A stretch of DNA of 64,000 nt from Amphiscolops sp. MND2022 (Eukaryota): contig OZ076409.1 of the NCBI GenBank assembly GCA_964187785.1, positions 70,248,001 through 70,312,000 of the forward strand, given 5' to 3'. Position numbers and translations under genes: made by a program. Positions 360 to 31,800 of this stretch are shown here, one piece after another (within the stretch, counting starts at the first letter, position 1; each line of letters begins with the position of its first letter). The notes beneath the pieces were generated by a model, which was given only the letters and a program-made list of their open reading frames with translations, did no database searches and was not told the origin of the DNA.

Positions 360-3300
360 ATGCCCCCTGAAGGCATCGAACAATCTTCAGTTTCTGCACA
401 GAACGTTGCCCATCAATTCGGTCATTCGCCTCCCACAAACCAGCAGTACGCGACCGACAGTTACTTTCTGCAAGATGTCAAGGATCAGTCCCAGTCTATG
501 CATCATTCCACTTTGAGTGGAAACTTCCATTCGAACATGGGTGCCTCTGAGATAGATTCAAAGGATTATTACCGCCATGTGGCACCTGTTGCACCATCGC
601 AAGTAGAATTATCACAAGCTGATCCTAGATACGCTGCTTTGCATGGTACTGGCGATACCTTCACAGCCAGCAACGACAACCAATACTTTCTTTCACATGT
701 GAGTCTGACATTTTTCGTTGTCATTGATGAAATCATCGCAATTTTCAAGTTGAGTTTTTAAGAGCTGATCGCGCTGTTTGGAACTAGCTTTTTAAAATAT
801 CCAAATGTAGTAGTAGTAACAAACAATGCTGACATTGTCGATGCACGTCAGTGAAAAAATGCTTTTCTGGGTCTCTTGAATTGAATGGTGATTCGTTGCA
901 ATGGATCCTGGTCTCAATGAATGACGATCTTTCAACTAATCGGAGAATCTAGATTTTGCATCGCTTTCATTGATTGAACAAAAGCTGCATTTCAGGACCA
1001 TGACCTCCTTTCTTCGACGCCGGATGTCTGCAGCTTCGATGACTCCTCTATGGAGAAGACGACCGCTAGTAATGTAGATTCGGCTTGTCAGCTGGTTCGG
1101 CCCACCAAAGTGGAGGACTCCGAGTTGGAGAACGAAGACATAGCAAACATGTGGGTTTGGTCGCCTTCTGTGGAGCATAGCATAACAAAGTTTCTGTCAT
1201 CGCCAGCAACCTTTTTTCTTGATAGAGAGCAAACCACCATGCCCGGAGTCATCGAAACTGCTCCTGGTTAGTAGTTATTTTCCTGCCGAAGTGTAAAAAA
1301 ACCTTCATCAAAAATTGCTTTTTACACTTGCGATAAGCAAGTGTTATGGGAACGTGCGAATTTTTTTTTCCGGGTGACAACTCTCTCATTTCAGACCGCA
1401 AGTCGCATAATTCAGACTTTTTTGGTCTAGTGGTAAGATGCTTGCTTTTCAACCCAGAGGGCCTGGGTTCGAACCCGTGCCTATGCACTATTTTTTTTAC
1501 AAGCTGTGCTGCTTCCAATACTTGCAATTGTTTTGAAACACTTGCTTTTCAACCCAGAGGGTCTGGGTTCGAACCCGTGCCTATGCACTAATTTTTTTAC
1601 AAGCTGTGCTTCTTCCAATACTTGCAATTGTTTTGAAACACATTTTTTAAATGATCAAGTTGAGTTCATGCATTCATGTAACATGTAATGATGTACCTAG
1701 CAAGGTTTTATTTTTGAGTGTATGAGGTTTACCTGAAAAACGTTCCGGCAAATCTTGGTACAAATCAGCCATAATAAAAAGGTTTGTTAGGCTGAAGATT
1801 GCAGCAGTTGATGTCGACGACGAAATACAAAATTTCAAGAGTTGAGACATGGCGTACCAAAACTGTCGAGTCCGAGATTTTAGCAAGTTGCATGTAGAAG
1901 GGGTGCGAAACTAGCGAGTCCTTCCCGGGCAGGTCGTTCCGGGCCACCCAAGGTTAAACACATGTAACAAAATATGAAACTGAGTTCACCGAATTTAAAA
2001 TTTTTTTAGTATAATTATGGTTCATTTTGTTTTTCGTATTTTCACAATGTGTTTTGGCGGACGTTTTATGTTACATCAGTTTATGGATGTTTTCCTATTG
2101 CGGAATCATTTGATCCCTAAGATGTCATTTTTTTTGGTCCTCAACTGAGCAGAGGTTGCTGGCCTTTTTTTCGGTAATTTAGCTTTTCATATAAAGACTG
2201 AGGAAACTTTTCAGGTTGTTTCAACATTTTTTTCGAACTCAGTTGATCCATTTTTTAATGAAACATTATTCTACCCAAAAATGCCAAATTTAAGTTGCAT
2301 GTAGAAGGGGTGCGAAACTAGCGAGTCTTTCCCGGGCACGTCGTTCCGGGCCACCCAAGGTTAAACACATGTAACAAAATATGAAACTGAGTTCATCGAA
2401 TTAAAAATTTTTTTAGTATAAATATGGTTCACTTGTTTTTCGTATTTTCACAATGTGTTTTGGCGGACATTTTATGTTACATCAGTTTATGGATGTTTTC
2501 CTATTGGGAAATGATTTGATCCCTAAGATGTCATTTTTTGGTCCTCAACTGAGCACATGTTGCTCGCCTTTTTTCGGTAATTCAGCTTTTCATATTAAGA
2601 CTGAGGAAACTTTTCAGGTTGTTTCAACATTTTTTTCGAACTCAGTTGATCCATTTTTTAATGAAACATCATTCTATCCAAAAATGCCAAATTTGAAGCG
2701 ATCGTCCCAATTTTTAACGGACGCCATTCGTGCTTGAATTCACTCAATACGATCTCGAACAGTATCTCTCGATGTTGCTCAGAAGAAAACTTTGTTAAAC
2801 CTAAAATCTGAGACCGCAATGTAACTTAGACGATTCACTGTGCAATGGAAAGATTGCTGTTCTCAAAAAAGTTCAATTAACGAATGGTGAACCAGTCATA
2901 CTTTGGCTCCATTTCGAAAACAGTGATGTTGGCCAACTTCAACGAATAAAGCATCACCGTTTGTATCGTGACGGCATTCAATCGAATTGGGTCCCCATTT
3001 TCAAATTATCTCAAAGCTTCGATGTAACTCATGGAACAACATCAACTAGAGTTACCAGAATTCAGTTTCCTGTCGTTCCTGCATCTGCTATCACCATTCA
3101 TAAATCGCAAGGTGAGCTATTTTTGTTCTTTTCGGGAACGTATATTAGCACTTGTTACTAATCGTTTCAACCTGAAGTGAAACGCTATCTTCCTTTTATA
3201 TTAGATTTCACAACTCCCTGGTTTTTTTCTCGGAGAATGAATCTGTTAATACTTCAGGCGATACCTTCAATGACTTGGAGTGTGACTTCCGTTCTCGACC

Positions 3301-6300
3301 AACAATTCATCATTTGGTGTACACGGCACTGAGTAGAGTCCGAAAGTTGGAAAATTTGTTCATTGTCGATGAATTCCTCTCCAGAAAGATATCTGTTCAC
3401 CCAGAAGTTAGTTCAATCGTTGTCGACCCTGCTTCGGTTTTTGAACTGCTCTACAGCCAATTGTTACTTTCCCTGAGTTGTTTGGTTATACTGAATCCTC
3501 TTGCTCAATATACACTTTTTTCGTTTCAGGTTACGCTGGAGATGGACCGACTTAGACAAGAGGCTGTTTTTCCAACTTTACAATCTCTGTCCAAGTGTTG
3601 CAAAATCCGCCTATTGTTCCAAAATGTACAGTCTTCGAAAAAATTTTTGCATTGCTACCAAGCAACCATTTTTCGACACTGCAACTTTCAACATTTTCTG
3701 TGAAACTTGGTTGATGTCATCAGACACACTTCCATCCACATTCAATGATATGTTCATCACACGACTTGATTTTCCTACGTGTGATTCGAATCAGAGACAC
3801 AGAGGAGGATTTGTAATTTTCTCGAAAGTTCGTCTCGACATAACATCCGAAGTCACGAACAATGTGCAAATAGCATGTTTCGAATTCATGAATCTTCTTT
3901 TCATTTTTGTTCATCGACGACCGTCAGAAACACCAATATCATTGTTCAAAGAATGTCTTTCTCAGAAGTTTCGCCAACAGAAGAAACCAACCATTGTTAT
4001 GGGTGATTTCAATGTAAACTTGAAATGCGATAACAGCTCCTTTTTACGCTTTATGGGGTCAGAAGGTTTCCACTGTCTAATTGATGATACCACCACGAAA
4101 GAGCACACACTTCTTGATCACGTATACTGCAATGAATCGAATCTTCTTCATAAGTTGAACTGTTTTGTGGCCTACAATGTTTATAGTTTCCATGAGCCCA
4201 TTGTTTTAGAAGTTTGTGATTGATTTTGTTTCAGTAGTTTAGCTTGTTTATCTTATCTTGAATTATATCCAGCTGAGATGAGAAATTTCGAAACAAGAAA
4301 AATGATAGCGTATAATGTTTTTTCTCGCTTTTCGATTTTCGGAAATCCAGGCACCATATGTGCAAAGATTTTCGCGCTTAGTCAAAAGCCTACTTCACGT
4401 TGCGAGCCATGATTGCTAACATTTGAGAGAAAGCTTTAGGCCATCTTATCGGGCCGAATGAGTTGCCGGAGTTGTTTTTAAAGAGATTCCACAGTTTGAA
4501 GTTGAAGGCCGGAGGCTCGAGAAGTGAACTCAAGGTTAAAACTCAATATTTCTATTTTCAATTCCAAATTACAACCCAATGATTTTCTCTTTAGAATTAG
4601 TACCCACTTTTGTAGTATGATTTATTAGTGCTAATGAATATGATTTATTTTCAGAGGTGTAAAATGCATTTTCGTTGGTAAAATCTCAAATGTTGCCTGG
4701 CAAATAGCGATGTTACGTGTTGTGCTTTAATAAAAGCGATGTGTTTTGCGCTGTGCTGTTGCCTTCGTCAAGAATGCAGGCTTTTTTTCAGAGGAAATCG
4801 GCCACTCAAGGCATTTTTTGGCTGGTTCCCCCAACAAGCATTTTCATTTCAGGACCTAATTTGTGTCTTTTTGTGCTGTTTTTAAATTGATCAGTAAGTA
4901 AAAAATTGTCTTGCCTTTTAAGCCATGGTCCTTCGTGTGATATTGCTTATGCGGTTTTTTCAAAATTTGCAACTTCGCAAGTGTTTGCGAAGCACGGCTT
5001 CGCCTCTGTGTAAATTTTGTATGGCAAGAGTACTTTTGACATTCGTACTTCTCATTTGATTCAATTAAATGCCTGCTGAAAATTTTGTTCAACGTGTATT
5101 TTAGCTAGGGAGAAGTTGCTTGAATGTCTCTGAAATTTTTTATAATGATTGTAGGAAGCAAATTTATTGTTGTAAAAATCACAACTTTTGATGTTGAGTA
5201 AAACATGCTGGCGAGCGGGAATAACGTCTAAGAAATAACGTCTAAAGCCAAGTCATGCTCATTCTCAATCTTGATACATTGAACTTTAGATGTTATTTCT
5301 CTAGACGTTATTCCCGAAACCGTTTTTGGCGTTATTCCTTAGACGTTATTCGCGCCTCTAAAACATGCTGTGTTCCTTTTTAGCCGATGCAGTGCATGAG
5401 TTACTGAGCAAATACACGAAGGTGACAATCAGGAGACCAATTAACGCAGCTTTCATCTCTCCAGACGAGATTGGACTGCAGACTCTGATGGCAAACGAGA
5501 ACTTCAGAGCCGCTCTTGACCTCACAGAGAGACTGCTGACCTCTCTGGGCCAAGGAAGAGGCACTGCCGGTCACATATCTAAGAACAGTGTGCACAGTCT
5601 CAGGCTCTGGCATGCTCGATTCACACTTTTCGCAAAGGTCAGTTGCATTTTTTCTTCGGTCAGTGTTCAGTCAGCAAAACCTGAAGCCGTGTCTCAAGTC
5701 GAGGTTTTTTTTAAATTTTCTGGCTGTTTTTTGCCCCTGCAATGAAATCTATTTCTTTTATTCAGTTTCTCGTTAATCGTGAGCTAAACAACGCCTATAT
5801 TTCGAAAACTGCAAAGAAAATCATTTTGACTATTCGAAGATTCTAATGATTCTATGTCGAGCTTAATTAATGGACTTCTGACCTTTGTACCTAGTAGTTC
5901 CTTTGATTTACCCAGTATGTGAAAAAACTTCCCAGTATGTAAAAAAAGTATGTGAGTAAACTTCTTTTTCTTGTGAGTTCAGAGATATAGAAAATCTTAC
6001 GGGGCCACTGCCTTTTCAAAAATTAACTCTTCGGTGTCACCGAGTCTTGTTTGATATTTCAGCTGAAAATGTATTCCGCAGCTGAGCAAGAGTTTGAATT
6101 TTTTGGCAACTTCGAGAGAACCGATCTCAGTTTCGAATACTACCCGCATCTGTACCCTGACAAATCGGGAAGCATGGTGCCTTTTGCTTTGCGTATGCTG
6201 TGGGCGGAAAATGCAGCCTTCTTGGGGAAGTACAATGAAAGTTTAGATCGACTCAAATTCTTGCTAACCTCTGTTCAGAAACTTATCCAATGTCTGGAAA

Positions 6301-9300
6301 GAGGCGTCGACCATAACGGACGCAAACTTGACAATGACTCGTTTGGCAGGCAAGCGTTGAAGTATTGGAACAAAAAGCAAAATAGCGTTAGTTCAAGTTA
6401 CTTATTGTATTCAAATGTACTAAAATTAGAATATTGGGAACTGAAATTTCCAAAATTTCGTTATTTATAGACTGGAAGATGTTATTCGCCTGTAACTAAA
6501 GTAGTGTGTATTTGGCGGTGTAACGTGCATATGAATATTAAAGCTTGGAGTTCATCTTGAATGGATGAATTTAGTTTTTTTATATTCTGATTCTTCCGAT
6601 TTCCTAATTCTGATTGTTTCTATTTTAGATCATATATGCCATGGGCAATACATTCCTCTTATGGCTAGACTACAGCTCTGCATTTGAGCAGTTTGAGCTG
6701 CTCATAAATCGAGTGGACAGTCCAGAGGAAAAGGTCCATCTAATCAGTGGCATAGGGAGAAGCAATTTGCAGTTGGGGGATCTAAAGAGAGCCGTGGTCG
6801 CTTTCAAGCAAGTGGAGAGTATCGTGAATGAGTTGAAGGAAGGAGCGTCCTTGGAAAGTCAGGAAATTCTGAAGTTGAGTCATCAGGTGCTAATGAACAA
6901 AGGACTTCTGTTTTTGTGTCAGAACAAATACAAGGATGCAGTGACAGCTTTCGAACAGATCACCAAAGAAGACCCCTATGACGTCACCGGTATGTCAAGA
7001 GATCTGTTTTCAGCTAAAATTTGGGCAACACATCTTCATGTCAATTGGTTTTTGATTGCGGAAAATTCTTGATGGCTTTTCTCTTATTTTTCGTTGGCAC
7101 TATATGAAAACATGAAATGTACCGCGACTATTGTAGTGGCGTTTCGTTTTTTTTCCAATCCTCTCAAAGTGACCAAAATAGTTATACATTTTACTCCTTA
7201 GATCTAAAGCGCATCCAAACACCCTGAAGTGTACTCCTTTTGATGTTTTGTTATGATCTATGAAAACTCTTTAAGACCAATTGAGGTGAAACTTTTGGAA
7301 TTTTTTTTACACCACGAATTTGATTCTCGCTTTGTTTTTAGTCGGCGCTTACGTAGGAAGAGCAGATTTTAGTAGTGACTTTTAAAAAAAAAATTTTAAG
7401 ACCGACGAACTGACAGATTTTATAAGTTTTATGAGCTGTTGCTCAGTAACTTCTAACTTCTACTGCCACTTGGAAGAGGTTAATGAGGATTTTTTGAGGT
7501 GTGAGAAGCAGAAGGAGTGGGTTCGAGTGTCACACTTGACCAAAATTTGTTAACGCTGTTAATTCGGCTTTGAGTTCTTTTTTTAAAAAATATTTTGCAG
7601 CAAATTGGATTTTCAAAAAGCCCCTTTACAATTTTCGACCTTGTGAGATTTTTCGAAATGATTATTTTTCGTCATTTTAGTTAGCTTTTCTCAGCACGCT
7701 ATGTCCGAATTATGTTTTTTTAAGATCGACATTTTTTTTTCAATCTTTTTTCTGAATTGTTTTGAGCGAAACAAAGTGTTTTGCGAGCATAGAGGACTCC
7801 TTATGGTTTTCGGCACTATGCGATTTACCGGAGAGACCTTCAGCAGAAACATTCTTGAAAACATTTAAAAATTGTTTTCGTTTTTTCAGAGGTTTTCTGT
7901 GGAGCAAAATGGGTTTTGTTGTCTCCCTCAGAAGATTTGTCATTCCAGTTTCGTATAGTCTTCCATATAGTAGTCACAAATATGTGATTATGGCATAGGT
8001 GTCACAGCAAAACTGAATATCTATATTGGCATCCCAAGTATCCAACCAATCGGGATGTAGTTATTAATGAAGAGTTCGTCAAAATTCCGCTTCAAATATA
8101 CAACTTTCCCACCACGCGAAATTGACACGGCTCGGTGATATAAGACGTGACAGACAGCAAAGCGAAAAATTCATCGAAAGTTTCTAGCAAAGTACTGCTG
8201 AGCAAACTTTGTTTGGCGTCAGACAAAATTTTGATTGACATTTTTACTTGTTCCTCGGTCAATTTCACTCCATTAGGTTCAGCTATCAAAGTTGTTTGTG
8301 ACGGGAGGCGAGGATAATTGAAGCGACAGTTACCACTTCGTTTCAAGCAAGATTTTGTATGATGGAGACCCTGTAGCTCAAGTAGTTTCTGACGCAGGGG
8401 ATCATCTTGAGCAGGAAGTGGACAAGTGATAAACTGATTCACCAACTTTGTCGTCATCCAGGGTATCACCTTCCATGAATTGTTGCATGAAGGCTTCAGT
8501 TAGCGAGAGACATCCATGCACGTGAACCATTCCACGCAACTGCATTTCTAATTATAAAACTCTACGGGTACAGAGCCATCAAATTTGAAAATTGAAATCC
8601 ATTGATCTCCTGAATCTCTTGATTGAAAATTCAAAGTCAATAATCCTTTGAAATCGTTTCGATGAACAATTGTAGACGTTTGGTAAAAACACCAGTAACT
8701 TGAACGGCGTGTTTCTTAAAAACATCTGGTCTTGCGATTCGATCCGATTTTAAAAACTCTTCGAAAAGCGTACCATCAATAGCAAGCCGGGAACGGCCCA
8801 AGTCGGCGCCACTTCTAAGGCTCCAAAATAGCAAAGCACTTCAAAGTGTCAAGTATCTCTTCTACAGTACCCGCATGAGGAAAAAATTGAAAAATCCGAA
8901 ATTTTTCCGATTTTTCTTTGGTCTCCGGTAAGTCGCATAGTGCCGAAAAATGTGAAAAGGGGGCCCTTTGGGAGTTTTTTTGAACATCCATTCTTTTGCA
9001 AAATAGAAAAAAGAAAGAAAAGGGACCCTTTGGAGACATTTAAAAATTTTGCGAGAAAAAGTCTCACAAAGCCGAAGAAATAACCTGCATAGAAAAATTT
9101 TTCGTGAAGGGCGGGACTCGAACCAGCGTGCTTCTGCTTACCAAACCTCAAAAAATCAGAAGCAGAAGCTACATTAGTGTGGCAGTTAGTGGAAGCCAGC
9201 TTATAAAATCTGTCACTTCGTTGGCCTAAAAAATTCAATACTATCGTCTGCATTTTGCTACGAAAAGCGCCGACTAAAAACTGCAATTTTGCCTCCATTC

Positions 9301-12300
9301 TCTGGCAACTGACTCGTGAAAGTAATTCATGACCGAGACTCTTCAAAATACTGATTGACACTTCCGGCCATCGAACTTCAACGCATGAAAGTGTAAAAAA
9401 GATATGAAAGGGCCCCAACTGTTTTACTTTCGCAAAGATGTCTGATCTTGCGACTTTCCAATACTGACTAGTTCCTATTAATCGTTGGAATACATAAAGA
9501 ACGTCGTTTTGTGTGAGAATATACTCCAGAACGTTGCGTTTCTTCGTTGCCTTTTTTGAAAAATAGATCACATTTTTTTCGAACTATTCTCGATTCGCTG
9601 TTGAGCGGTATAAAGATAAATTGAATCTGAGCTGAAGCGAGAGTCAGAATTCATGTGTCTCTGAGTTAAATACTGCTGGGATAATAAATTAAGCGGCCGG
9701 TCTTCACTCAACGTGTTCCGACCTGGAGGGAAATAGCTAGGAAAAGCTTTAGCTTCGAAGTCCTTATTTTTCAACCAGTTTGTGGTTTCCTTGTTTTCTT
9801 CGGGTGCCAATAGACTTATCCATTAATGTTGATCTCGTGTGAATGTCTTGACATTACAAAAGCAGTTGGGTTTCCTGGAATCAGACAGTTGTCTAACCCT
9901 TCATCAATTTCCAGACCGGACTCTAAATCAAATGCATCTGTTCTTTGTTTGACACTGGCTTCATTTTCAATATGTACCTCCAAATCAGTCAGGGGCGAAC
10001 TGTCGCTTCCAATATCTTTCTAGTTGGGAATTCCCAATTTTTGAATTTTTCCAATGCGTTGATTATAGCACTCGGGGGAACAAGCGATTCGGAGTAAAAA
10101 ATTTCAAAACATTCGTTCTCTTCAGTTTAACATTCACGAAGAAGCTATCAAATGTACCACGAGGTAAAGTATTAGTTGTTGACACGATGTCATCACAAGT
10201 GAGTGGAACATTAATGACGCGATCTTTGATTGCATACATTCTCGTACGGGAAAGACTGAAAAATTCAAGAAACAGTAAATCGGGAACCAATTGGTGTTCT
10301 AAGTCCGTGAGAGTAAAATCATCAGTCATTTCTTCTAGTTCCAGTTTGTTTTTAATTGACCTTGGCGGCGAAGTTTTTCTTCCAAAGCCTTCGTGCAAGT
10401 CCAACAAACGTCGATGGAACTGGGCGAATTTGGATTGAAGAGTTTGGACGGGTTCTTCCACTCCGTCGCCAAAAAATCATTTGGCAGCATGAACAATCGA
10501 ACACCAAACCTGGCAATAATTAGTTACGGAACAAGCAAACCTTTTCTTTGAACGAGAATGACAAACCTCGTTGAAGCGTATACTTTCTTTTCCTTTTGGA
10601 TTTCGTACGGTTTTTTTGATGTGACACAGCATTTTCAACATTTCGGGCTTTCGCATTTTCCTGCAGGCTACGCCATTATTTTACGATTGTTCGATATTTC
10701 TCTTGTTAAGGTTGCTTTAGCTTTTTAAAGTAAGTTTCTTTCAGCCAAAGTTTCAAGACTTCAAGATATTTTTGTCTCAATTCGAATCTGAGATGCATCT
10801 TGTAACACTCCTTGTACCGACGTTTCATCTCAGCCAAACAGTCTTTGTAACGACGTTTCCTTTTTTCAGCCGCCAAACAGTCTTTGAAACTACATTTCAT
10901 TCTTTCAGCGAAATAGTCATCGTAACGAAGTTTCTTTTTTTCAGCTAAACACTCCTTATAGCGACGTTTCATGTTTTCAGCTAAACACACTCATTGTAAT
11001 GACCTTTCATTTTATCCGCTAAATACTCTTCGTACCGACGTTTCATTGTTTCAGCTAAGATTTAATACTGATGTCTTAATCGAGGTGCCAAGAGAGTCCT
11101 AAACTTTTCACCTTTCAGCTGTCTGTTTTTTAAATAATGGGCTCTGTTGATGCGTCTACGACGTTCAAGGTGAGGTATTTTATTATCCAGTTTTTGTTTG
11201 CTCTGACGAATCCAAATGATAAAAGCTGCGTAGTGTAGTTTACACGACTGAAATGATTTCGTGCTGTTTCCTGATCAATGAAAGTTGCATCACAAGAAAC
11301 GCAGAGTCTACTAAGTAGGTCCAAAAAAATGAAGTTGCAAATTCTGACGTCTCTGTGTATTCAACTAATCTTGACGCTTCACAATCAGGACGAGTTTTCT
11401 TGCACGTACGTTGCAAGTGTCGGGCCAGTGGTACTGAGCTGGAAAGTTTTTCGACCGTTCGAGCAACTTTTCGAGACAGCACAGTTCAGTCTGTTTTAGT
11501 TGGTATGTTTTCACCAGAAATGGAGGGAGTCGGAATCCAAGACATTGTGCCTGGGATCTCGGGCAAAGAAGGCTGCGAAGCCCTTTTGTCAAAAATCTTG
11601 AAGGGCATACCTCTGAAAAACACTTCCTGCGTTATCGATTGATACAACTTCACCGAAGAACATTCGGTATGGAACTGCTGATCCGTGTAGGAGTTACATC
11701 TGAGAAAATTTTCGATACTGCTTTTTTTTCAAATTCGATAAAATGTAATATTCCATTTTGCCAAATGGTATTTCTACAACGAAACCTTTGATTCCAGCAA
11801 ACATGAATTTGTCGAACATGTATTGTGTGTGACAATCCACTGAACTAAACCCAACTGGTGTTCCCCTCACATGTGTATCGATCCACCCCAGAACATTTTT
11901 GCCAGCTGTACAGAGTTTGTTAAGGTACACAGAAGTGTCATTTTCGTCGTTTCCTGTGAACACTAAGAAATCAATACCCATAGAATCCCAATGACACTTT
12001 ATGTTGAGGTATTATCTTGGAACAAAATTTGGGAATGAGTTTCTGAAATTAAAAAAATCGCTGTCAATTTTAGTGGTTTGAGATGAAACATTCAACAACT
12101 TATATTGTTTTTCACATGACACGAGGAAGCTGATTGAGTTGGTAAAAAAATGTTAGCGATGATTTCACAAGTGTTACTTTGTGTTCCCAAAAGAAAAGCC
12201 AGAAGTTTAACGTGCTTTTCATCCTGATCCACTGTAACTGAAGACAACCGGAGAAAGAGCTCGAAAAACTTTCGTGAAAAAAATGTAAAAACAGGTCAGA

Positions 12301-15300
12301 AACTGTAAAAATTGAACCAGTGGGAAAAAACGGCGAAAAAGGACAGTCTAATCAAATTGTTCTGATACGAAAAAAAAACAACGGAAAGCCAAACTGTAGT
12401 AAAATGCAATTTCAATTATGACTGAACCAGAGAGAGGTCTAAACGGGCAATCACAAAAAACAAGAATTTCGAACCATTCCAGCGTGTAACTTGATTTGAT
12501 AAGAGCTTTAGAACTAAACGCATCCTAGAAAGTTTACTAGGATCAAATAACTGAAGCGTGTGACGAAAGCAGTACCTGATACGCGGCAAAAATGACAACG
12601 CATTATGTTAAGCTCAGCAAAGCATTGGAATTAACTAGTGGGAAATGTATACACAACAAACTGTCAAATACGCTGACTGATTTGGAACGCTGACAATCAA
12701 AATAATGAAAGAAACATACCAACAACTAACTGAGCACAAGACAAACGTTTTAATCAAAACATGTCTAACATTCCATGGTCACTGTCGCTTGAAAACTTTG
12801 TATAAAAACTCTTTCAGCAAATTGTGGATAGATTTCCGAGGAACATCAACAGCCTGGCTGTGAGCGCTTCTTCGACTTTTTAGTACTCAAAGTCTGCATG
12901 TCCGATTTGAATTCGAATTTGAAAGTTTCGATCGATAGTGGCCCCAAGAATTTCACCTTTAAACCGAGGCTGAACGATGGGTAATTGGTTGAAAGTCTCA
13001 CCGGTGTATCCGCTGGCGTTGGGAGTCGAAAATTCGGCTGAAGGTTCATTGTTTCCGATATGCTCCTCGTCGGGATTTCTCCGGTTTTTCTCCGGATCGC
13101 CAGCGACGAAAGAAACCGGTTCCTTCAATAGCACACGAAGAGCCGAGTTGGAACAGCCTTGGGTGTCATCAAACTCATTGGGAAGTGCAGCAATTACTTC
13201 ATCTACAGAGCTGTTGTTAAATGATATCAAAAAATTTTGTTCGAAAGATACAACTTGCTTTCGCTTCTTTGAAGATGTTTTTTTTCGCTTTCTTGATCTC
13301 TGTATGATCACGTGTGACTGATACTTTCTTGAACAGGTTTCCAGCTGGAGCAGTTGAATCATTTCCTTCAGTCGAGTTCAGACTCCGTTGGAAAAAAGAT
13401 ACTATACCACGACTAGTTTGAGGTTTCTCTGAAGCTGCGTTGTTCAATTTTGGAAGATTCAACTTTTGGCAAAGAAGTCTGTTCTCGAGGATTACTAATT
13501 TTCAAAGGATTAAGGTAATTTTTGTGCTCTCGCTGGGTAGCTTCGTTTCGTGAAGAAAACATTCGATGGTCACGGTTGGTGCCATCAACCGATGCTTTGG
13601 CATGAACCATAGCTCTTCCGATGGCTCCCAACAGAAGTTTTTCACCATCATAAAGAAGTAGATTATCTTTGTAATTGTTGGTCTCTATACCAGCTTGTCC
13701 AAACCTCGATTTTTCAGAGAACAGAATATCGTGGGTAGAGTCCATATCATTGATCAGTTGAGACACGATGGAAGCCTGGTCGGTGTGTTTACTTGTCATT
13801 GCAAGACCTGAAATCAGAAAAACTGGCTGTTTTGGATTAACAACTAGCTTGAACGGTTGTCCCCAATATCGAAACATTTTGTCGCCCGTATAGAAAATCG
13901 GAATTCACCGCCTACTGCAAAATGGGTGAATTGTGAAAAGTCAGCAACCGAGTCACTAATTCCAAAAATAGTTGAACTGTAGTCGTTTTTGTGCAACGAG
14001 GAGACGCAGGAAACAGCCTATTTTAGTTTGATATGTGATATTTGTCTCAGTGGTACTAAAAGATGAATACTATGAAGTTAGGAATCAGTTACCAACCCCC
14101 CCCTAAAAAAAATTCGTGAAACACGGGAGAAGAAGAAGAAGAAGATTTATTATTATTATTTGTTGCCCGCAGGCTTACAAATTTAACGAACTAAACATTG
14201 TTTCAGCTGAGGTGTGTAGAAGCATATCATGGACAGTACCTCATAAAACAGAAAGATTTTTCAAGAGCTTTTTAATATTGGTATTCATCAGCTGGTCATA
14301 CTTGATAACATTCGGGAATGATTGATAAAGTCCGGGTAAAACGATCTTACTTCTATTTTCAAACTTTTTACACACAAACAGGAGATGGTACTCATCTGGA
14401 GTTCCTGGCAGCCCACATAGTGTACCTTCTTCTGCCGGAAGTCCTAGATATCGCGTTATTACTTTGGGGTGTGCTGACGAAGCACACCTGAAGTAAACTA
14501 ATCTCCATTTCGCTGGACCCTTCAGTAATTTCAAGTAAATTTCAAGTTCCAATCGATGTTTATACAGTCGGTAGTTGTCACAGAGTCAGTTATTATGTAT
14601 CATAACTTACCACGATTGAAATGCAAGTTCATTGCATCTGTCTTTCACATACTTCTTGAATTCTGCATCAGCGATATAGCCTTAATACATCTCGGCAAAT
14701 GGTATACCACAGTTGATCAAACGGGAATGAAACGTAAACTTGACTATATTGTAAATATCTAGCTGAAGCGATTGATCATAAGGAATAGAGAAAGATTCAG
14801 TTAAAGGTTCAAAAGTGTAACAAATACAAGTAAAGTGACCATTGAGGATCAGTGCATAATGTATAAACCATAAAAAAGAAAGACAAAAGCATTCAATGAA
14901 CAATCATAGCAGTCAGAAATAATCAGTCACAATCAATCCGTTAAGTCAATCGAGTTTCCCTCTCTGGCTTCGGGCAGAAAACAAGGAACGTACCTAAAAA
15001 AGAATTGGAAGCGGAGAATAATAGAAACATCGTCAAAAATTGAAGGGGGTCCTTCGGTGAGAAAAAATATTTGGAAAAATGTCACAATGCCGAAAAAACT
15101 GAAAGGGGGACACTTTATTGGGAAAAATTTTCGAAAAAAAATAGTCGCACGATGCCGAAACAGAAACTGAAAGGGAGGACCCTTTAGTCTCGGCTGGTAA
15201 TGTATGTTAAGCGGAAACAAAGGAAAATTTTTTGATTCAGTTCGCTAGGCCAAATGGTTCAATTTGACACCATAAAATTTAGTAGAACTTGTAGAACTAT

Positions 15301-16424
15301 TTTGGTCACTTCAGGTGTATCGAAAAAAAATAAATTAAAAAACACTGACGAAAAGCCATGACTATAGTCGACTCTTTTCTCTAGAAAAGCGCAGACTAAA
15401 AAGCGGAAATTGTCTCAAAATTTTTTGATTTTTTTCAGAATTTTATGCTTCGGTAAATCGCATCGTGCCGGAAAAACGGTGGCCCTCTATGCTCGCAAAA
15501 CGCTTTGTTTCCGCTAAAATCAAAGGGGCACTTCGATTGAATAAAATACTTCGGGGGGAAAGTCACAGTGCTGAAAAAAACAGGGGGCCCTTTAGTCTAC
15601 CCTCTAGCTTTGCAAGCATAGAAAAATTTTAGGGCAAAGTTTAATGGGAGACTCGAACACACGTTTTTCTGCTTCTCGGACTTCAGAAAATCCGAGTTAA
15701 CCTCTATGCCAAGTGGCAGTTCGATGATACAAGTTACTTTGAACTTTGATTAAAAATTACACCACGATTTGTGGTTAGAGCGCGCAATTCGTAGGCCAGT
15801 GATGTTTAGAATTTGGCCAACACTGATTTTTGAAACGCCGACTTTTGCCAATCCCGGTTTGTTTAGTTTTGGTCGGAATGGTCTTAGAGTTCCAACCATG
15901 CAACGCATGTGAATTCCTTTTGAAGAAAATGGTCATTGAGGGAAAATTATAATCATTGATTTTTCTAACCAATTCATCTAGCAATAATTCAATGTTCCAA
16001 TATTGCGCCATTCCTGACCCCTGTTGACAACATTATCCTTAATTTTGATGAAGAGTTCATAATTTCCTTGATTTGCTGGTTCCATAAATCAGTGACGAAG
16101 AAGCCGCATTTAAAATAAATTGAAACATGATACGTTGTGATTTCTCGATAAATTACTTGGACTGCTGATTATTTTTCAGCGTGGAATAACTTGGCAGTCA
16201 CAAATGTGTATCTTGGCCGCATGAAGGACGCATCTGCAGCCCTGGACAATATCATCAAACAGCAACCTTCCAGACAAAACAGCAATGAATCATTAATTCA
16301 AAACTTGAGTCTCCTCTTCGGTGACGAAACCCCTAAAAGCCTGGGCAAGAAAATTCTCCTCTTAGAGCACGTTGCCCGTGTTAAAGGCGACTCTTTTTCA
16401 ACCAACTGTCTTCGTTTTCCTTGA
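360..16424 (+). CDS. TRAPPC12: Trafficking protein particle complex subunit 12 (TPR protein, TTC15). Exons 360-698, 996-1266, 5384-5637, 6063-6386, 6629-6989, 16180-16424
   Basis: Frame-consistent GT-AG exon chain. Motifs TMPG, NFRAALDLTERLLTSLGQG..HSLRLWHARFTLFAKL and [40 protein letters not shown] match TRAPPC12, followed by TPRs and WNNLAV..YLG. The low-complexity exon 1 is the least certain. Confidence 0.9.
1422..1640 (+). repeat. tRNA-derived (Glu-like) SINE-type head with a 100-bp tandem duplication (1441-1540 / 1541-1640)
   Basis: A-box TGGTCTAGTGG and B-box GGTTCGAACCC, no acceptor stem; near-identical second copy 100 bp downstream. Confidence 0.6.
1885..2694. repeat. Tandem duplication, about 407 bp x2
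   Basis: AAGTTGCATGTAGAAGGGGTGCGAAAC starts at both 1885 and 2292; the copies align with scattered substitutions. Confidence 0.9.
2820..4223 (+). mobile_element. Helentron (Helitron2) RepHel 3' fragment: Pif1 helicase C-terminus plus AP-like endonuclease; two introns (3112-3257, 3407-3529) and a frameshift near 3633
   Basis: RIQFPVVPASAITIHKSQG|DT and YTALSRVRKLENL are Pif1 motifs; NVQS, CETWL, GDFNVN, TTKEHTLLDHVY and SFHEPI are EEP endonuclease motifs. The Pif1-endonuclease fusion is characteristic of Helentrons. Confidence 0.85.
5211..5358. mobile_element. MITE with imperfect TIRs and a long TSD (Mutator/Foldback-like)
   Basis: Ends GAATAACGTCTAAG ... CTTAGACGTTATTC; direct repeat TAAAACATGCTG at 5199-5210 and 5359-5370. 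Confidence 0.7.
8782..9280 (-). mobile_element. HINE/DINE-1-like non-autonomous element inserted into the Helitron Rep ORF
   Basis: Minus-strand 5' TTTTTAGTCGGCGC ... 3' GGCGCCGACTTGGGCCGTTCCCGGCTTG; interrupts Rep between ...EAKLQ and AIDGTLFEEF. Confidence 0.75.
10700..11060 (-). repeat. Coding tandem repeat (about 36-39 bp; KRRYKECLAE-type peptide units) in the Helitron N-terminal region
   Basis: About 7 degenerate units of plus-strand TCAGC(T/C)AAACA...CGACGTTTC; ORF 10706-10990. Confidence 0.7.
11694..12295 (-). pseudogene. AMSH/STAMBP-like JAMM (MPN) metalloprotease domain remnant
   Basis: SRKFFELFLRLSSVTVDQDEKHVKLLAFLLGTQSNTCEIIANIFLPTQSASSCHV (~12105-12295) followed by VLGWIDTHVRGTPVGFSSVDCHTQY parallels AMSH ...ETCGILCG...ITHVLIPKQ...LGWIHTHP...SSVDLHTH. 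Confidence 0.65.
14128..14800 (-). mobile_element. Non-LTR retrotransposon (LINE) 3' fragment
   Basis: C-terminal FRCASSAHPK...LCG..DEYHLLFVCKKFENR (post-RT Cys/His region); 3' tail (AAT)n(CTT)n on the minus strand at 14128-14160. Confidence 0.7.
14990..15401 (-). mobile_element. HINE-like family copy (5' part)
   Basis: Family terminus CTATAGTCGACTCTTTTCTCTAGAAAAGCGCAGACTAAAAA plus internal GAAAGGGGG..CCTTT subrepeats. Confidence 0.6.
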
Positions 16425-19600: not shown

Positions 19601-22600
19601 CTACCTATACACTGGGTTCAAACTAAAAAACAAGAAAGAAATTGAGTTGGTTCCTTTCATGAATGCCGCTTCCAAGGTCGATGAATTCAGTGTCCGCTCA
19701 GCTGATGCGAGTGTCAAGGCCAATCGAGACAGTGGTCTTTCCAAGTTTGCGAAAATGTTCAACTTGCTCTTCAAACTGAAGAAGGACAATCTTCTGCCAG
19801 TGATAGTCTTCGTCTTTTCCAAAAAGCAAATCGAAGAGATGGCGTGTAAGATGAAGGGAGATTTTGTGGCCGACAAGCATGAATCATGGCACATCAAAAC
19901 GTTCATAAGATCCAAGCTGAAAACTGTGAAAGCCGATTACGTGGAACACAGTCGTCAGGTGAATCAGCTCGAGCCTTTGCTTATCCGTGGTATCGGTAAG
20001 TTAGATGTAATCTTCAAAGTTAACAACTATACTGTGTATTCTTTTCTCAAGCAGAAGTTTGGAACAGTTGTAATTTTATGATTAGCTTTAGGCCCTTTAG
20101 TGATTGAAATTATCCTACTTTCTCTGAATTTTGACCCTCATGCGCTCATTAGAGAAAAAAATTAAGATCATTTTCTGTTTTGTTCTCAGGTGTTCATCAT
20201 AGTGGCATCTTGCCGATTTTGAAGGAGATAGTGGAACTGCTGTTTGCTAATGGCTTTGTCAAAGTGCTCCTCGCTACGGAAACTTTCGCGATGGGAGTAA
20301 ACATGCCTGCAAAGTCAGTAGTCTTCTCTTCAGTGCAGAAGTACGGCAACTTGGACGATGGTGTCAAACTGGGCCGAAGGTTAACATTTTGATACTTTTA
20401 GCCAAATATCAGTCAAAATTTTGTTATCGATAATCGTTGTACAATCTAAACATGCATAATTTGACTTAAATTTGATTGATAATCTTTTCTCAATTTTGCT
20501 TGCCGCGCTTGTGAAGAAAGTTGGATGAATTTGTAGAATTTATTCACACTTGTTCACATTTATTCATCATATCACTCTTTTGTTAATAAAAGTTGAAAGA
20601 CAGTCAGCTTTGTCAGCTCAGCCAGCTTTGTTTGTTTAGTAAACAAACAAATTCTCAAGTACCTTTCAAGGATCGTAGCATCATTTTGGTGGCCATTGAG
20701 AGGCATACACTGCTCTAACTCATAAAGATGACAGATATTGCTCGTCAATACAGACTTCAAAAACGTCATTTGCAACAGCAAATGAAAGAATGGAACGACA
20801 TGAAAACAGATTCAACTACAGTGCATTCACTCAAGGAACTACAAATTCGTTCAGACTTGTTAATTCGTCTGCAAAAGGAACAAAGAACTAAGTGAAAAAT
20901 TGTTGAATCTACTGAAGAAAACTACGATGCCGTTGGCGATGAAATGTTCACATTGGATTGTGACGTACAGCGAATAATAACAGAAATCAATTGGGAATAT
21001 AATCAACTAAGTTCAGCTAACCAATCGAATGTTGTGACAAGCAGTACTCATCCAACTTCAACAATCAACACAGAGAATTCCGTTGCTAAATTACCACAAA
21101 TTGAATTACCTAAATTCAATGGCAATTATTCTGATTGGCTCGCCTTTTACGATCAATTCAGCAGCTCTGTTGATAAAAATCCAAAGTTATCAAACGTTCA
21201 GAAATTGATTTATGTTAAACGTTGTTTAACTGGACCAGCTGAGCGATTAATAAAAAATCTTGAAACAACAGAAGCTAATTATGACAACGCAGTCAAAATA
21301 TTGACTTATCGAAATCAAAACGAATTATTGTTCGTAATTTGCTAACTCGAATTATTGAATTCCGACCTGTACGAACAGAAAATGCTTTCCAATTACGATT
21401 ACTTCATAACACTTTCCACGAAACAGCTCTTGCCTTAGAGTCAATGAATCAACTGGTCGACAACATCATGTGGTATCAATTGGTGTTCTCCAAAATGGAT
21501 CCTGAATCACAGAAGGCATGGGAACTAGCAAATCCTGGAACGAAGTGTCTGGAATACACAAACTTGATGAAATTCCTGGACTTGAGAACCCGCTCCATGG
21601 AAACTTGTCAACCAAAGGAGAATCCAATGAAGATGAAGGAAACCAAGCAACTATTCACAACTGAAACAGAGAGCTTCAACACAGCACTGTCCCGTTCCAA
21701 CTTGCAAAGCTAAGCATGCTATTTGGAAATGCCCCGTATTTCAAGCTCAATCACCTACTGAACGGAAAGAAACTGTCATACAAGGTAAACTTTGCTTCAA
21801 TTGTCTCAGATCAGGCCATGTCCTAGCAAAATGCACGACTTGTCAGTCCAAGCATCATTCCTTTTTGCATGAGAGTAGCAGCAAACCAGTCAATAATTCT
21901 GCCGAAATTCATAGTACGTTAGCTATCGAATCAAATCATGAAAAGTCAGGAAAAATCTCACTTTTACCAACTGCTCAAGTCGAAGTTCTAGATAAAAGAG
22001 GTAATAAGGTGAAACTTAGAGCTCTTCTAGATACTTGTGCTCACATTAGCGCCATTACAACAACTGCTTGTAAAAAGTTAGGCCTGCAAGTTGAAAATTC
22101 CGATGAAAGAATTATCGGAGTGAATCAGACATCTTCGCAACCAGTGGAAGGAAACGTCAAAATTTCTGTTAAACCTAAGCATGGAAAAGTGTTCAACATA
22201 AAATGTGTCGTGTTGAATAATATAACAAAAAGTGAGAATCCGAAATGCAAAATTGCCAATGAAGATGTTGAGCATGCCAAACACTTATGATTTAGCAGAC
22301 CCGACTTTTGATTCTCCAGGTCACGTTGATCTATTACTTGGAATCACTGTATACACACACATACTTCGAGATAAAGCTATCAAAATAGGCACACTTGCCT
22401 TAGTCGAAACAGCATTAGGCTGGACAGTTTCAGGAATAGCTACTCAAGAATCGCCAAATTTCTATCAGGACTCCTAGAGTATCAGTTTTGTGGAAAATGA
22501 TGACAGTAAGTTTGAGAAATTTTGGAAAAAAGAAGATGTCCCAACTTTCCCGGAATCTAAGATGAATTCAGAGGAAATTTCTTGTTCGCAACACTATGAG

Positions 22601-25600
22601 CAAACCACTACATATGGTCACGATGGTAGAGTCATAGTTCGACTTCCTTTCAAGGAATCTCACTTAACAATTGCATCAAATGGGTCAGATTTGGTGCCCG
22701 ATATTGGACATTCAGCATGAAATGCTCTCAGACAATTTATTCGCAATGAAAATAAACTCAAAAATAATGTTATTGCAAAACAGCAATATCATGAATTTTT
22801 CCAAGAAATGATTGACACAGGTCATATTGAACGCGTTCCACCGGATGAGCAGCATCTGGAACCAGGCAAATACTTCATGATGCCTCATCACGCTGTTTGG
22901 AAAGAATCCACAACCACAAAGTGTCGTGCAGTGTTCAATGCATCGGCTAAAACATCAAATGGTAAAAGTTTGAATGATTGTATCATGGTAGGATCCAAGC
23001 AACAACCAGATTTGATTGAAATTCTGATTAGATTACGCTTTTATCCAGTAGTTTTATCAGGAGATGTAACGAAAATGTACAGACAATTGATTTTGAATGA
23101 ATTGGACAGAAATTTGCATCAGTTATATTGGAGATCAGATCCTAGCGAACCAATAACAAAATGGCAATTAACACGAGTAAATTACGGAGTAGCATCAAGT
23201 TCATATCATGCAATACGGGCCTTGTGTGAATCAGTTGATAAAGCTCCAAATCAAACTTGCAGAGACGCAATTTTGAATTCATTTTATGTCGATGATTTTC
23301 TTGGTGGTGCATCATCCCCTGATGAAGCAGTATCACTTTATAAGGACATAACCACCACATTAGCTAGTCGTGGAATGCCTATTCGCCAATGGGCAAGTAA
23401 TTCAAAACAAGTTATGAATGAAATTCCAGTTGAACTACACGAAATCAAAGATTTTTTACTTCTCAAAGATGACCATAGCATCAAGACTCTTGGTCTCAAT
23501 TGGACACCTCAAACGGACGTTTTCTTTTTTCGTGCATTCGAAAAAACCGATTCAGAGCACTCCACAGCCTTGCCCCATGCTGTCAAGACAGAAAATTCCA
23601 CTAAATTCGATGAAAAACACAAAATTCACGATTTCAGTATTTCAGCACAAGGTGATCCAATGGTCAACTTTCAGGATGAAAATGACCAAGTTAAAATTGG
23701 CGCTGAAGGTCAAAAACGGTTTCGTTCGCATCCCCAGGCTTGCCCCTTGCAAACTGGACAACAGAAAAAGCAAAAATACAAAAAATGTAATTTTTCACCA
23801 ATCACGAAAAAAGGACCTATGGTCAACATTCCCATCACTTTTGACAAAGAAAAAGTGAAATTACACACCCAAACCTTCGATAAACCACACGAAAATGGTT
23901 GCCCCATTGATTTGCGACCAAAACAAGCATCATATAGTGACTTAACACAAAATTATGACACGTCCGAAAATCACTCCGATGGTCATCTTCGCACTAACTT
24001 TTCTAACACAAATCAGCAAAATATCGTTGCAAACGATACCCCCACCGCTTCTCCACTTGTGCCCCATGCAAAAACGTCAAAAATAACACGCAGGATCATT
24101 TCCAGTTCCCTTGGAAAGGTCTTTGATCCTCTAGGTTTGGTCACACCATAACATTACTTCCGAAAATTTTATTTCAAAAAACATGGGATGGTACTTTAAA
24201 TTGGGATGATGACGTTGGGGCAACTATAACGAGTCAGTTTTTGTACTGGATGGAATTTATTCGTAGACGCTTCTGAAAAGGCCTACGGAGCAGCCATATA
24301 TGCCCCATCAATTTGGGACTCTACCAGGGGTGGTGGCTTGCTCATAGCAAAAAGTAGACTGGCTCCAAAACGCTCAGTTAGTCTCCCCAGATTAGAATTA
24401 TGTGCAATGGTTCTTGGTGTCAAACTCGTTGAATACGTACTTCAATCACTAGAACGTTTCAATTTGAACATAAGCATTTCAGCATGGAGTGATTCCACCG
24501 TAGCGTTAGCTTGGATACAATCCACACCTAGCAGATTCCAGATATTTATAGCAAATCGAATAGCAAAAGTTCAAAGAGCTTTTCCAGTTGAGAACTGGAA
24601 ATATGTACCTACTTCCGAAAACCCAGCAGACTATTGTACTCGTCCAGTAAGTCCCAATGATCTTTTGTCATTGGACATCTGGTGGCATGGACCCAATTGG
24701 ATCCATGGAGAACCAGTCACACTACCAAAACAACCTCAAATTCTAGAGAATACAGAGTTTCAAAGAGAGATCCGTAAGAAGGAAATTTTAGCCTTAGATT
24801 GTTCGGGCACACCTGCTCGTCAGACCGGGGGGACCCGACCGCGTTCGCTGACACTAGTACTGAAAAAGAAATTGTCAAAGTTGGCCACATGCTCCCTATA
24901 GAAAGATGGGGAACTTTCGAAAAAGCTATCAAAATTACAAAGTTAGTGATAAAATTCATCCACAAGATTCGTAAACAAGTAATAGAGGAAGTAGAATACC
25001 GTAAAATAGCTTTGAATCACCTAATCAGACAAGTGCAACACAGTTATTATAGCCAAGAAATCAAAGACCTCGAAAATAGGCAGTCAGTTGCAAAGGAATC
25101 AAAAATAGTTCAATTATATACTTTCTTAGATGGAAACAAACTTCTGAAGGTTGGCGGAAGGCTACTAGCAGCTGATTGTCTCGCTCAAGAAACAAGTTTT
25201 CCAGTCATAATACCAGGACAAAGTTATTTAGCCAAACTCATCGTACTTGATAGTCACCACAAATTAGCACATTGTGGAACAAATGCAATTAGAGCTAACA
25301 CGAGACAATTCTTTAGGATCACGAAAGTAAGAGCATTAGCACGAAAAACCGTAGCAACTTGTATTAAATGCAATAGATTTAATAGCAGGAACATGCAGCA
25401 ATTAACGGGTGATTTTCCCAGTGAAAGAGTTAATCCATCGCCTCCATTTTCTCCTGTTGGTATAGACTTTGCAGGCCCATTCTTTTATGAACAAAGCACA
25501 ACACGATCGAAATGTTATATTGTAGTTTTCGTTTGCTTCACTACTAAAGCTGTACACTTAGACATAGCGAAATCATTAGACACGCAGGAGTGCATGAAAG

Positions 25601-30381: not shown

Positions 30382-30884
30382 TTGTGTTCTGTAGTCGTTT
30401 CAACTCGGTCCGAAATGTGGAAAGAGTTGTTCATAAAATTGGTGAACTTTTCGGACAAATCCTTGCATCTCAGAAAACGGATGTTGAATCAAATTACTCG
30501 CGCGTAATGCATAATGAGATTGATGCCGAGTGAGTCCAATTGAAAAAAATATCTGTCTATTTCGCCCAGATATGTTGTACGATTTGAAGTATTGATTGAG
30601 TCGAGAGGCGGCTGCTTATAAACTGAGAAGGAATTGACACCATTTTGATATTTTGCTGATAGATCCGCTTTAAACTGTAGTTAGATTTTAAATTTTAGTT
30701 TTTATATTGCTATTTTTCCACTTCAATATTTTCAATATTTGTAACCGAGCTGCTGCTTCAAACAAGCGTGTATTGATCTTTTCAAAGTGTTTGTCCAAAC
30801 TTTCTGCTCATTTTCAGATTGATTGTGTGCCTTGGCGTAGTGTTATTGGATTGTATTATATTAATATCACAACTCCGTTTGATC

Positions 30885-31800
30885 ATGTCGACCAGTATCG
30901 TGCAAGCTGTCACCAACATGTGGGACGAGTATCACTCCGCCACCCCAAAGAGACTGAAGCTGATTGACTGTTTCCTGGGTTATGTCATGGCAACGGGCAT
31001 CATTCAGTTCGTGTACCAACTCATAGTCGGATCGTTCCCCTTCAACTCGTTCCTCGCAGGGTTCATATCTACTGTCGCTACTTTCATCCTCACTGGTAAG
31101 TTGGAAAGAAAGAAAAACAATTGCTAATAGTCTGTGGCAGCTGACATTTTAGATCGTCTGACGTTTTCTCTGATAATCTGAGACCAGAGTGCACGAGAAA
31201 AGCATGGCATGCTGTAATTAACAATATTGTTAAGATTGGAATAATAAGCAGTTTCATTCAGCCAATTCGTCGTTAAATTCGAAGTCGTTGTGCCATCTAC
31301 CATCTAAAACTTGTAGTGACTTGCGCGTGTCTGGGTAGTTCCGGTATTTTGAGTGGCAAGTGTTTCTCAGAATTTGGACTGTTGATGCTACAAAAAATGC
31401 ACTGTATGTGATTCCGAAGTGGTAATATCTACACATTTAAAGAATTTTTCCTAGGAAGTGATATGATTTCAAAATTAAATTTTACATCTAGGCATCTAGT
31501 TGCTTAGGTTGGGATTCGTTTGACATTAACTCGTTGAGTGTTGTATCGGACCCTTGTCAATATTGCTACTCTCTTCCTCGCCTCTTCTTTTTAATAATAA
31601 TGATTATTTTATTATGAAGAAACCCATGATAATAATGATATCTTCTCTTAAAAAGATTTGTTTTGGTTTCAGTAAGCTTACGTATCCAAGTGAACCCTGA
31701 GAACAAGAAACAGTTTGACGTCACACCTGAGCGCGCGTTTGCCGACTACATATTCGCCCAGGTGATTCTGCATCTGGTGGTGATGAATTTCATTGGCTGA
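30885..31800 (+). CDS. DAD1: Defender against cell death 1 / OST2 oligosaccharyltransferase subunit. Exons 30885-31095, 31673-31800
   Basis: [42 protein letters not shown] joined to [37 protein letters not shown]. Confidence 0.97.

Follow-up and report, generated by a model that had tools for sequence, protein, structure and literature searches.

The proteases found reported in Helitrons, as far as the accessible text of the sources goes, are all papain-fold cysteine enzymes, namely OTU, VTD/Herpes_teg_N, UCH/USP and Ulp1 (PMC4067079, PMC9741609, PMC11417382). The VTD domains of zebrafish Helentrons are active deubiquitinases (DUBs) which cut K48 and K63 chains, two of them also cutting NEDD8, and their authors propose protection from proteasomal degradation, OTU being mentioned as well in the available part of that article (PMC9741609). 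The Helitron cargo in the available part of the HELIANO study includes OTU, UCH, Peptidase_C48 (Ulp1) and Herpes_teg_N, and JAB/MPN is absent from its Table S11 (PMC11417382). JAB is treated solely in prokaryotic operons in the accessible part of PMC3417536, and the term was not found in the accessible parts of PMC13085455, PMC8788227 and PMC11934779. No report of JAMM in Helitrons was found in the literature searched, Repbase and Dfam lying outside the search, where a database annotation may exist. The JAMM-bearing Helentrons are considered a distinct lineage. In addition, the excerpts available describe the JAMM motif as ExnHxHx7Sx2D and, in AMSH-LP, a second zinc that holds the Ins-2 segment, on which the K63 choice depends (PMC9313428); they characterize Helentrons by subterminal repeats, a 5' inverted repeat and a 3' palindrome, a Ser in Rep motif 2 being diagnostic "in most cases" (PMC4067079).

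This article discusses a window, that is, a stretch of 64,000 nucleotides of the Amphiscolops sp. MND2022 genome (contig OZ076409.1, positions 70,248,001 to 70,312,000). Our main reading, with a probability of about 0.6, is that it contains a dead copy of a Helentron lineage carrying an AMSH-derived JAMM, whose predicted zinc isopeptidase would protect the DNA-bound transposase or transposition intermediates from ubiquitin-driven removal. In this lineage JAMM and transposase are fused in one frame with JAMM at the N-terminus, the catalytic and second-zinc residues are intact, and JAMM has been inherited together with Rep/helicase.

The decayed copy in the window

The features of the element, from its 5' end, are as follows.

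15389..15402 (-): probable 5' terminus, with the subterminal repeat TAGTCTGCGC, which differs from the family core at one base, and then a short inverted repeat
13500..13823 (-): upstream ORF remnant (tblastn E 9e-14, 34%)
12104..12286 (-): JAMM exon 1, decayed, without acceptor or start codon; Glu is Lys at 12208-12206
11954..12103 (-): intron within the JAMM domain; donor GT lost in the window copy
11560..11953 (-): JAMM exon 2, decayed, W-I-D-T-H-x8-S-x2-D-x-H; first His is Asp at 11879-11877
11240..11485 (-): remnants of two CxxC-x12-H-x5-C zinc fingers, read from the sequence; fingers intact in copies L051 and L040
10804..11058 (-): 36-bp tandem repeat, seven units, Lys/Arg/Tyr-rich; basic helical linker (tblastn)
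10102..10560 (-): Cys-rich region and DUF6570 remnant (tblastn 43%)
9280..9905 (-): Rep (HUH), N-terminal part, frameshifted (tblastn, Pfam)
8780..9279 (-): nested non-autonomous Helentron, HINE-like, about 500 bp, inside Rep
7857..8779 (-): Rep C-terminal part with decayed HUH and Tyr motifs; beyond it no similarity to relatives

The sequence-only reading had seen an MPN/JAMM-like domain in two minus-strand peptides collinear with and upstream of Rep, and both are present as described: the frame 12295-12095 reads HVKLLAFLLG...IANIFLPTQSASS, the frame 12011-11697 reads LGWIDTHVRGTPVGFSSVDCHTQY, and on the same strand these are followed by Cys/His finger pieces (11485-11240), the peptide repeats (10804-11058) and DUF6570 and Rep pieces (10395-7857), among which the frame 9583-8852 matches Pfam Helitron_like_N at E 3.9e-08. 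The JAMM domain as a whole covers 12286-11560, and the gap between its two pieces is an intron (donor about 12103, acceptor 11954) which sibling copies have too; this intron occurs in subfamilies H and I and in the window's own, but not in A-G. Taken alone, the second piece matches Pfam JAB at 17.8 bits (E 0.003; cut-off 22.5) and the first has no match in Pfam; the window sequence by itself is thus suggestive, a hint of JAMM and not a proof.

The Lys and Asp in place of the catalytic Glu and first His had been put down to decay, and the alignments agree: the codon AAA (12208-12206) is GAA in three of three aligned relatives, GAT (11879-11877) is a His codon in three of three, and an 80%-identical sibling has Glu and His at these sites, so both changes are judged from the aligned sequences to be copy-specific decay. 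The window copy, compared with three relatives, also has neither the splice acceptor nor the ATG any more; the donor of the intron is gone, as in one sibling, a +1 frameshift lies near 11730, and at the second zinc site a Cys has become Phe with HxxC kept. Its collinearity with the intact transposase begins in the upstream ORF (13823), runs through Rep and stops near 7857, helicase and endonuclease missing. Over 5.8 kb it shares 80-81% identity with its nearest sibling, and the sibling at C12:29341242 aligns from 15402. The nested HINE-like element, absent from the sibling at this place, has the same subterminal repeats and 3' palindrome as its host element. The locus is a decayed, 3'-truncated Helentron copy, and it is dead.

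A stretch at 2822-4475 (+) was considered as the missing 3' half of the window copy and ruled out, because this helicase end plus endonuclease belongs to another Helentron family, being 99.5% identical to L145; full copies of the L145 family carry USP/UCH, which makes it a second young DUB-bearing family in the window. At 14160-14947 (-) is an insertion of about 0.8 kb which the sibling does not have; it contains a 114-aa frame and a simple-repeat tail, gives no Pfam match and is presumably a LINE 3' fragment.

Intact copies, the identity of the domain and its relatives

The genome (1.07 Gb) gave at least 45 matches to the second JAMM exon (53 candidates scored) and at least 62 to the intact JAMM domain, and 43 regions covering all 45 second-exon matches were fetched. 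The linkage of JAMM to Rep holds in most of them: Rep follows downstream on the same strand in 39 of the 43, and DUF6570, Rep, helicase or endonuclease in 40. Moreover, JAMM and Rep do share one open frame with E/HxH/S/D in intact copies. Two of ten loci read at 20 kb have a stop-free frame of 2304 aa from JAMM to endonuclease, in the order JAMM, zinc fingers, repeats, DUF6570, Rep, PIF1 and endonuclease, and Pfam finds JAB, DUF6570 (E 1.9e-13), Helitron_like_N, PIF1 and Exo_endo_phos in that order. This frame runs through a short in-frame helicase intron, where other subfamilies have stops or shifts. Four more copies are 98.4-99.7% identical to the intact locus over about 11 kb, and from these sequences the subfamily of about 11 kb seems young, its copies apparently intact. 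In a loose motif tally of the 43 regions, Glu is present in 34 and the first His in 33, this position having another residue in five (Asp in one other decayed copy) and being unreadable in five. Several copies (L035/L036, L037/L038, L056 and others) have internal tandem duplications of 2-3.4 kb in the transposase gene.

A conserved Met stands 0-4 nt past the splice acceptor in all 11 copies examined and an in-frame stop just before it in three, so JAMM is taken as the N-terminus of the protein and the upstream ORF as likely separate. The latter has 376 aa in the intact subfamily, with no match in Pfam or in the metagenome loci described below.

Among pairs of seven subfamily representatives, dN/dS is 0.087-0.134 for JAMM in the five of 21 with measurable dS, the other 16 being saturated at synonymous sites, and it is 0.061-0.100 for DUF6570 (three of 21) and 0.076-0.083 for helicase (two of 21). 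JAMM is therefore shown, by codon comparison, as kept under purifying selection like the helicase. That JAMM is a chance neighbour or a passive fragment of the host AMSH gene might be read from the 3/43 regions without a downstream Helentron domain; one of these three, however, is a sibling of the window copy, truncated and with 82% identity to it, and the open frame common to JAMM and transposase, the dN/dS of about 0.1 and an intact host AMSH at a separate locus, for which a forced grouping with the transposon JAMMs of this genome is rejected (p-AU 2e-08), leave this explanation refuted and with next to no probability. The element-borne, selected JAMM of the main reading is the one considered below.

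The MPN/JAMM-like identity stands as well. A profile of 18 pieces from the genome copies matches AMSH/AMSH-LP at E 2e-13, Rpn11 at E 3e-06 and CSN5 at E 0.004; a single intact JAMM sequence matches AMSH-LP at E 3e-06, and the intact domain alone reaches 25 bits against Pfam JAB (cut-off 22.5). An AF2 model built from 61 sequences (pLDDT 94.9; a single-sequence model was poor, pLDDT 62, and left unused) finds AMSH-LP as the best Foldseek match (E 6e-15) and, with VIA, AMSH as the best (Z 20.1, rmsd 2.4 A, 169 residues), the Prp8 MPN domain reaching Z 17.7; on this model the transposon JAMM is predicted to have the MPN fold. Copy L051 has E28, H91, H93, S102 and D105 as catalytic residues, where the window copy has K and D for the first two. 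The spacing is not the canonical one, the transposon group having x8 and not x7: HxH-x8-SxxD is found in 80 of 86 transposon-type matches of the protein scan described below, and Glu in 31 of the 36 which cover it. Their second zinc site has His in 86/86, Cys in 74/77, His in 72/75 and Cys in 73/74; in L051, H107, C148 and H160 align with the second-zinc (Ins-2) positions of AMSH, and C163 is likely, from its sequence, the fourth ligand.

Compared with AMSH, AMSH-LP and Sst2 (PDB 3rzv, 2znr, 2znv, 4jxe), the transposon JAMM has in common the MPN+ fold with Glu, HxH, Ser and Asp, the Ins-1 hairpin region and the second zinc site of Ins-2. It differs in its identity of only about 25%, the x8 spacer, longer Ins-1 and Ins-2, HTHV(R/Q)G for the HTHP of AMSH, the His/Cys/His/Cys second site, the fusion to a transposase and its own branch in the trees. 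Because the USP8_dimer (MIT) domain was absent from the intact protein in Pfam and the branch is separate (SH-aLRT 95 and 99), the domain is, on sequence grounds, AMSH-like and not an AMSH orthologue. Rpn11, CSN5 and prokaryotic JAB peptidases have the same catalytic motif, but their similarity is far weaker (E 3e-06 to 0.007); the prokaryotic JABs of mobile ubiquitin-like operons are likewise on mobile DNA, as the part available of PMC3417536 describes.

Two rival readings of the enzyme are weighed on these data. If JAMM cleaved a ubiquitin-like modifier (NEDD8, SUMO) or the element's own polyprotein, this would accord with the deneddylase CSN5 being a JAMM enzyme, with the two NEDD8-cutting Helentron VTDs (PMC9741609) and with Ulp1 in the HELIANO cargo (PMC11417382), each in the part of the article available; it is nevertheless quite improbable, since AMSH (E 2e-13) is far closer than CSN5 (E 0.004) and Pfam finds no ubiquitin-like domain in the intact protein. 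A shade less probable again is a non-catalytic ubiquitin- or zinc-binding module, an MPN-like scaffold, with which the spacer one residue longer than canonical would fit, but MPN- proteins lose the catalytic positions, and here all five are among the most conserved columns across relatives 25-35% identical. A catalytic ubiquitin isopeptidase, as in the main reading, is preferred to both.

The fusion is not confined to this genome. A HMMER scan of 1.84 billion proteins gave 140 matches, that is, 28 AMSH-type, 87 transposon-type and 25 without readable core motif (Pfam was run on 42 of the 140). Removal of seven transposon-type matches near-identical to the genome's own copies left 80, of which ten run at least 400 aa past the motif, eight with DUF6570, its Cys-rich leader or Rep and two with C2H2 arrays only. 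P0025, of 2152 aa and 34% identical in the JAMM domain, has the full architecture in Pfam. A metagenome scan gave 30 loci (11 transposon-type, 12 AMSH-type, seven without motif); DUF6570/Rep lies downstream in eight of the 11, the other three contigs ending within 1.2 kb, and in four loci a single frame of 1746-1968 aa stays open from JAMM as far as the helicase. In public proteins and metagenome contigs the JAMM-Helentron fusion is about 25-38% identical to that of this genome, and this divergence, with no such sequences among the genome's matches, points to other species as their source. The divergent JAMM family comprises dozens of 50%-identity clusters. A full-length search with region 1-200 of a 2283-aa protein gave 458 candidates and none at E<=0.001, its word index missing relatives found by HMMER; pattern scans of viral contigs and prokaryote genomes, which are insensitive, gave no relatives. 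P0018, P0057 and P0059 were dropped as ankyrin/fibronectin repeat artefacts. P0026 has a DUF6570 piece ahead of JAMM, suggesting a tandem or rearranged element. In P0031 and P0035 a JAMM of transposon type, its motif intact, is joined to an array of C2H2 zinc fingers without Rep, and six of the seven members of the P0035 cluster are of 601-602 aa; they are possibly domesticated genes.

In quick JAMM trees, from which short-coverage matches were left out, all transposon-type JAMMs are set apart by a single branch (42 of 74 rows, SH-aLRT 95; 14 of 29 rows, SH-aLRT 99). In a likewise quick Rep/helicase tree, whose columns were anchored on one JAMM-bearing reference, which favours their grouping, 21 of 21 JAMM-bearing sequences are on one side (21 of 31 rows, SH-aLRT 99). 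Within the genome, intron-bearing and intron-less subfamilies split alike in both trees. AMSH as one clade has p-AU 0.585, so the transposon JAMMs may be nested in AMSH or sister to it. The simplest reading, in which direction and date are presumed, is that an AMSH-like gene was captured once, long ago, and passed on together with the transposase. The proposal that this lineage convergently acquired a metallo-DUB is supported, DUB activity being a prediction, with the correction that the capture dates far back and is common to elements of other organisms, not particular to this host.

The Helentron class and other proteases in the same slot

In the intact subfamily, Helitron_like_N (E 5e-17) and PIF1 (E 3e-25) are in one protein, of which the window copy has Rep only, and the C-terminal AP endonuclease matches Exo_endo_phos at E 0.005 in L051, with its motifs, and at E 9e-11 in L109. 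The ends bear a subterminal repeat with a 10-bp core (AGTCGGCGCC / GGCGCCGACT), a 5' hairpin of -11.1 kcal/mol and a short 3' palindrome; as for insertion, expected in T-rich sites without target duplication, five copies begin with TTTT and end with GTT, and two have inserted into the T-run of a non-autonomous relative, where at these occupied sites no duplication is seen. Mite Helentrons have, in the part available of PMC4067079, a core of 12-15 bp and a 3' distance of 38-60 bp, against 10 bp and about 20 nt here. Rep motif 2 of the JAMM Helentrons is RVEMQLRGMAHIHG, RGMAHIH against GSPH, and the diagnostic Ser is missing; because of the endonuclease, DUF6570 and the termini they are filed as a variant HLE2 lineage. 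HLE2 elements with cysteine DUBs have the same Rep-PIF1-AP endonuclease, DUF6570, subterminal repeats and 3' palindrome, and their protease is likewise upstream of Rep, VTD being within the transposase frame; the JAMM elements differ from them in having a zinc metalloprotease of MPN fold, unrelated to the papain-fold enzymes. The Helentron subterminal core TAGTCGGCGC has 22 sites in the window against 0.76 expected, so non-autonomous copies are abundant.

A Rep search of the genome gave 103 matches, and 18 further loci (20 stretches) were fetched. They contain JAMM in two, UCH/USP in three (L145, L146, L147) and OTU in one (L144), the UCH/USP and OTU domains being upstream of DUF6570, in the same slot as JAMM; no recognised protease was found in the remaining loci, including three close Rep relatives which are decayed or internally deleted. 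L147 (G000:C8:60656001-60666000), USP-carrying, branches beside the JAMM group and matches the upstream ORF weakly (30%); it may mark a lineage in which the protease was swapped. The Helentrons L142, L157 and L159 have no recognised protease upstream, and by eye a Cys-rich, PHD-like N-terminal segment without Pfam match. Helitrons proper, to our knowledge, mostly have no protease either, so a protease is not needed for transposition as such.

Proposed function

In the proposed mechanism the JAMM at the transposase N-terminus, a predicted active zinc isopeptidase, would strip ubiquitin chains from the DNA-bound transposase or adjacent proteins, and this stripping would spare transposition intermediates from host ubiquitin-driven removal. 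Catalytic activity is probable, and ubiquitin is probably the substrate; however, the x8 spacer against the published x7 could mean an altered active site, and at about 25% identity to AMSH the ubiquitin-contact surfaces may differ. That it acts in cis, on the Rep covalently joined to DNA, would be a somewhat less than even bet; this is suggested because HUH enzymes become linked to DNA through a 5'-phosphotyrosine, and in cells such protein-DNA adducts are removed by proteolysis that depends on ubiquitin and SUMO. P0031 and P0035, in which JAMM with C2H2 arrays occurs without Rep, count against the protection of the transposase.

The strongest competitor, though unlikely, is an active K63-selective DUB which edits host signalling chains in trans, at DNA-damage foci, PCNA or chromatin marks, and so steers donor or target repair instead of protecting the transposase. 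AMSH is K63-specific, and this together with the retained second zinc site suits the editing of signals more than a rescue from K48 degradation; the nearest structures are the K63-specific AMSH, AMSH-LP and Sst2, and the fusion tethers JAMM to DNA. The zinc site that shapes Ins-2 and the K63 choice, according to the accessible part of PMC9313428, is conserved, but the Ins-2 loop is longer and the last ligand is Cys, not His. Furthermore, the USP, OTU and VTD of other lineages are not K63-only, VTDs cutting K48 and K63 in the part of PMC9741609 available. Protection of transposase and intermediates remains the preferred reading.

More broadly, and rather tentatively, these elements may represent a widespread JAMM metallo-DUB subfamily on eukaryotic rolling-circle transposons in the cysteine-protease slot, the convergence reflecting a general host defence by ubiquitin-dependent removal of the covalent transposase-DNA intermediates, with some JAMM-C2H2 forms domesticated. 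That the cysteine-protease slot contains, under purifying selection, a metalloprotease whose fold is unrelated argues strongly, by comparison, for ubiquitin removal itself as the selected trait, and not for one particular domain. As JAMM-, USP- and OTU-bearing Helentrons occur in one genome with young, apparently intact JAMM copies, why Helentrons need a DUB becomes testable. With this family, a DUB class of which few eukaryotic members are known gains a divergent single-domain JAMM, and surveys may have overlooked it because its scores lie close to or under the Pfam cut-off.

Some other observations concern the surroundings. Rpn11 occurs twice in the genome, 3 kb apart (G000:C8:26923273 and 26926381), as a tandem duplicate or an assembly artefact. 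The window contains intron-bearing genes. A Ski2-like helicase gene (DEAD at 18442, DSHCT at 28882) holds an LTR retrotransposon remnant at 20896-26346 (+) with RVT_1, rve and Integrase_H2C2, which we take to be BEL/Pao-like by gene order, and host TPR, DAD-family and thioredoxin-domain genes and a BED-finger transposon fragment are found at 5362-7072, 30777-31127, 40993-42567 and 50013-50393.
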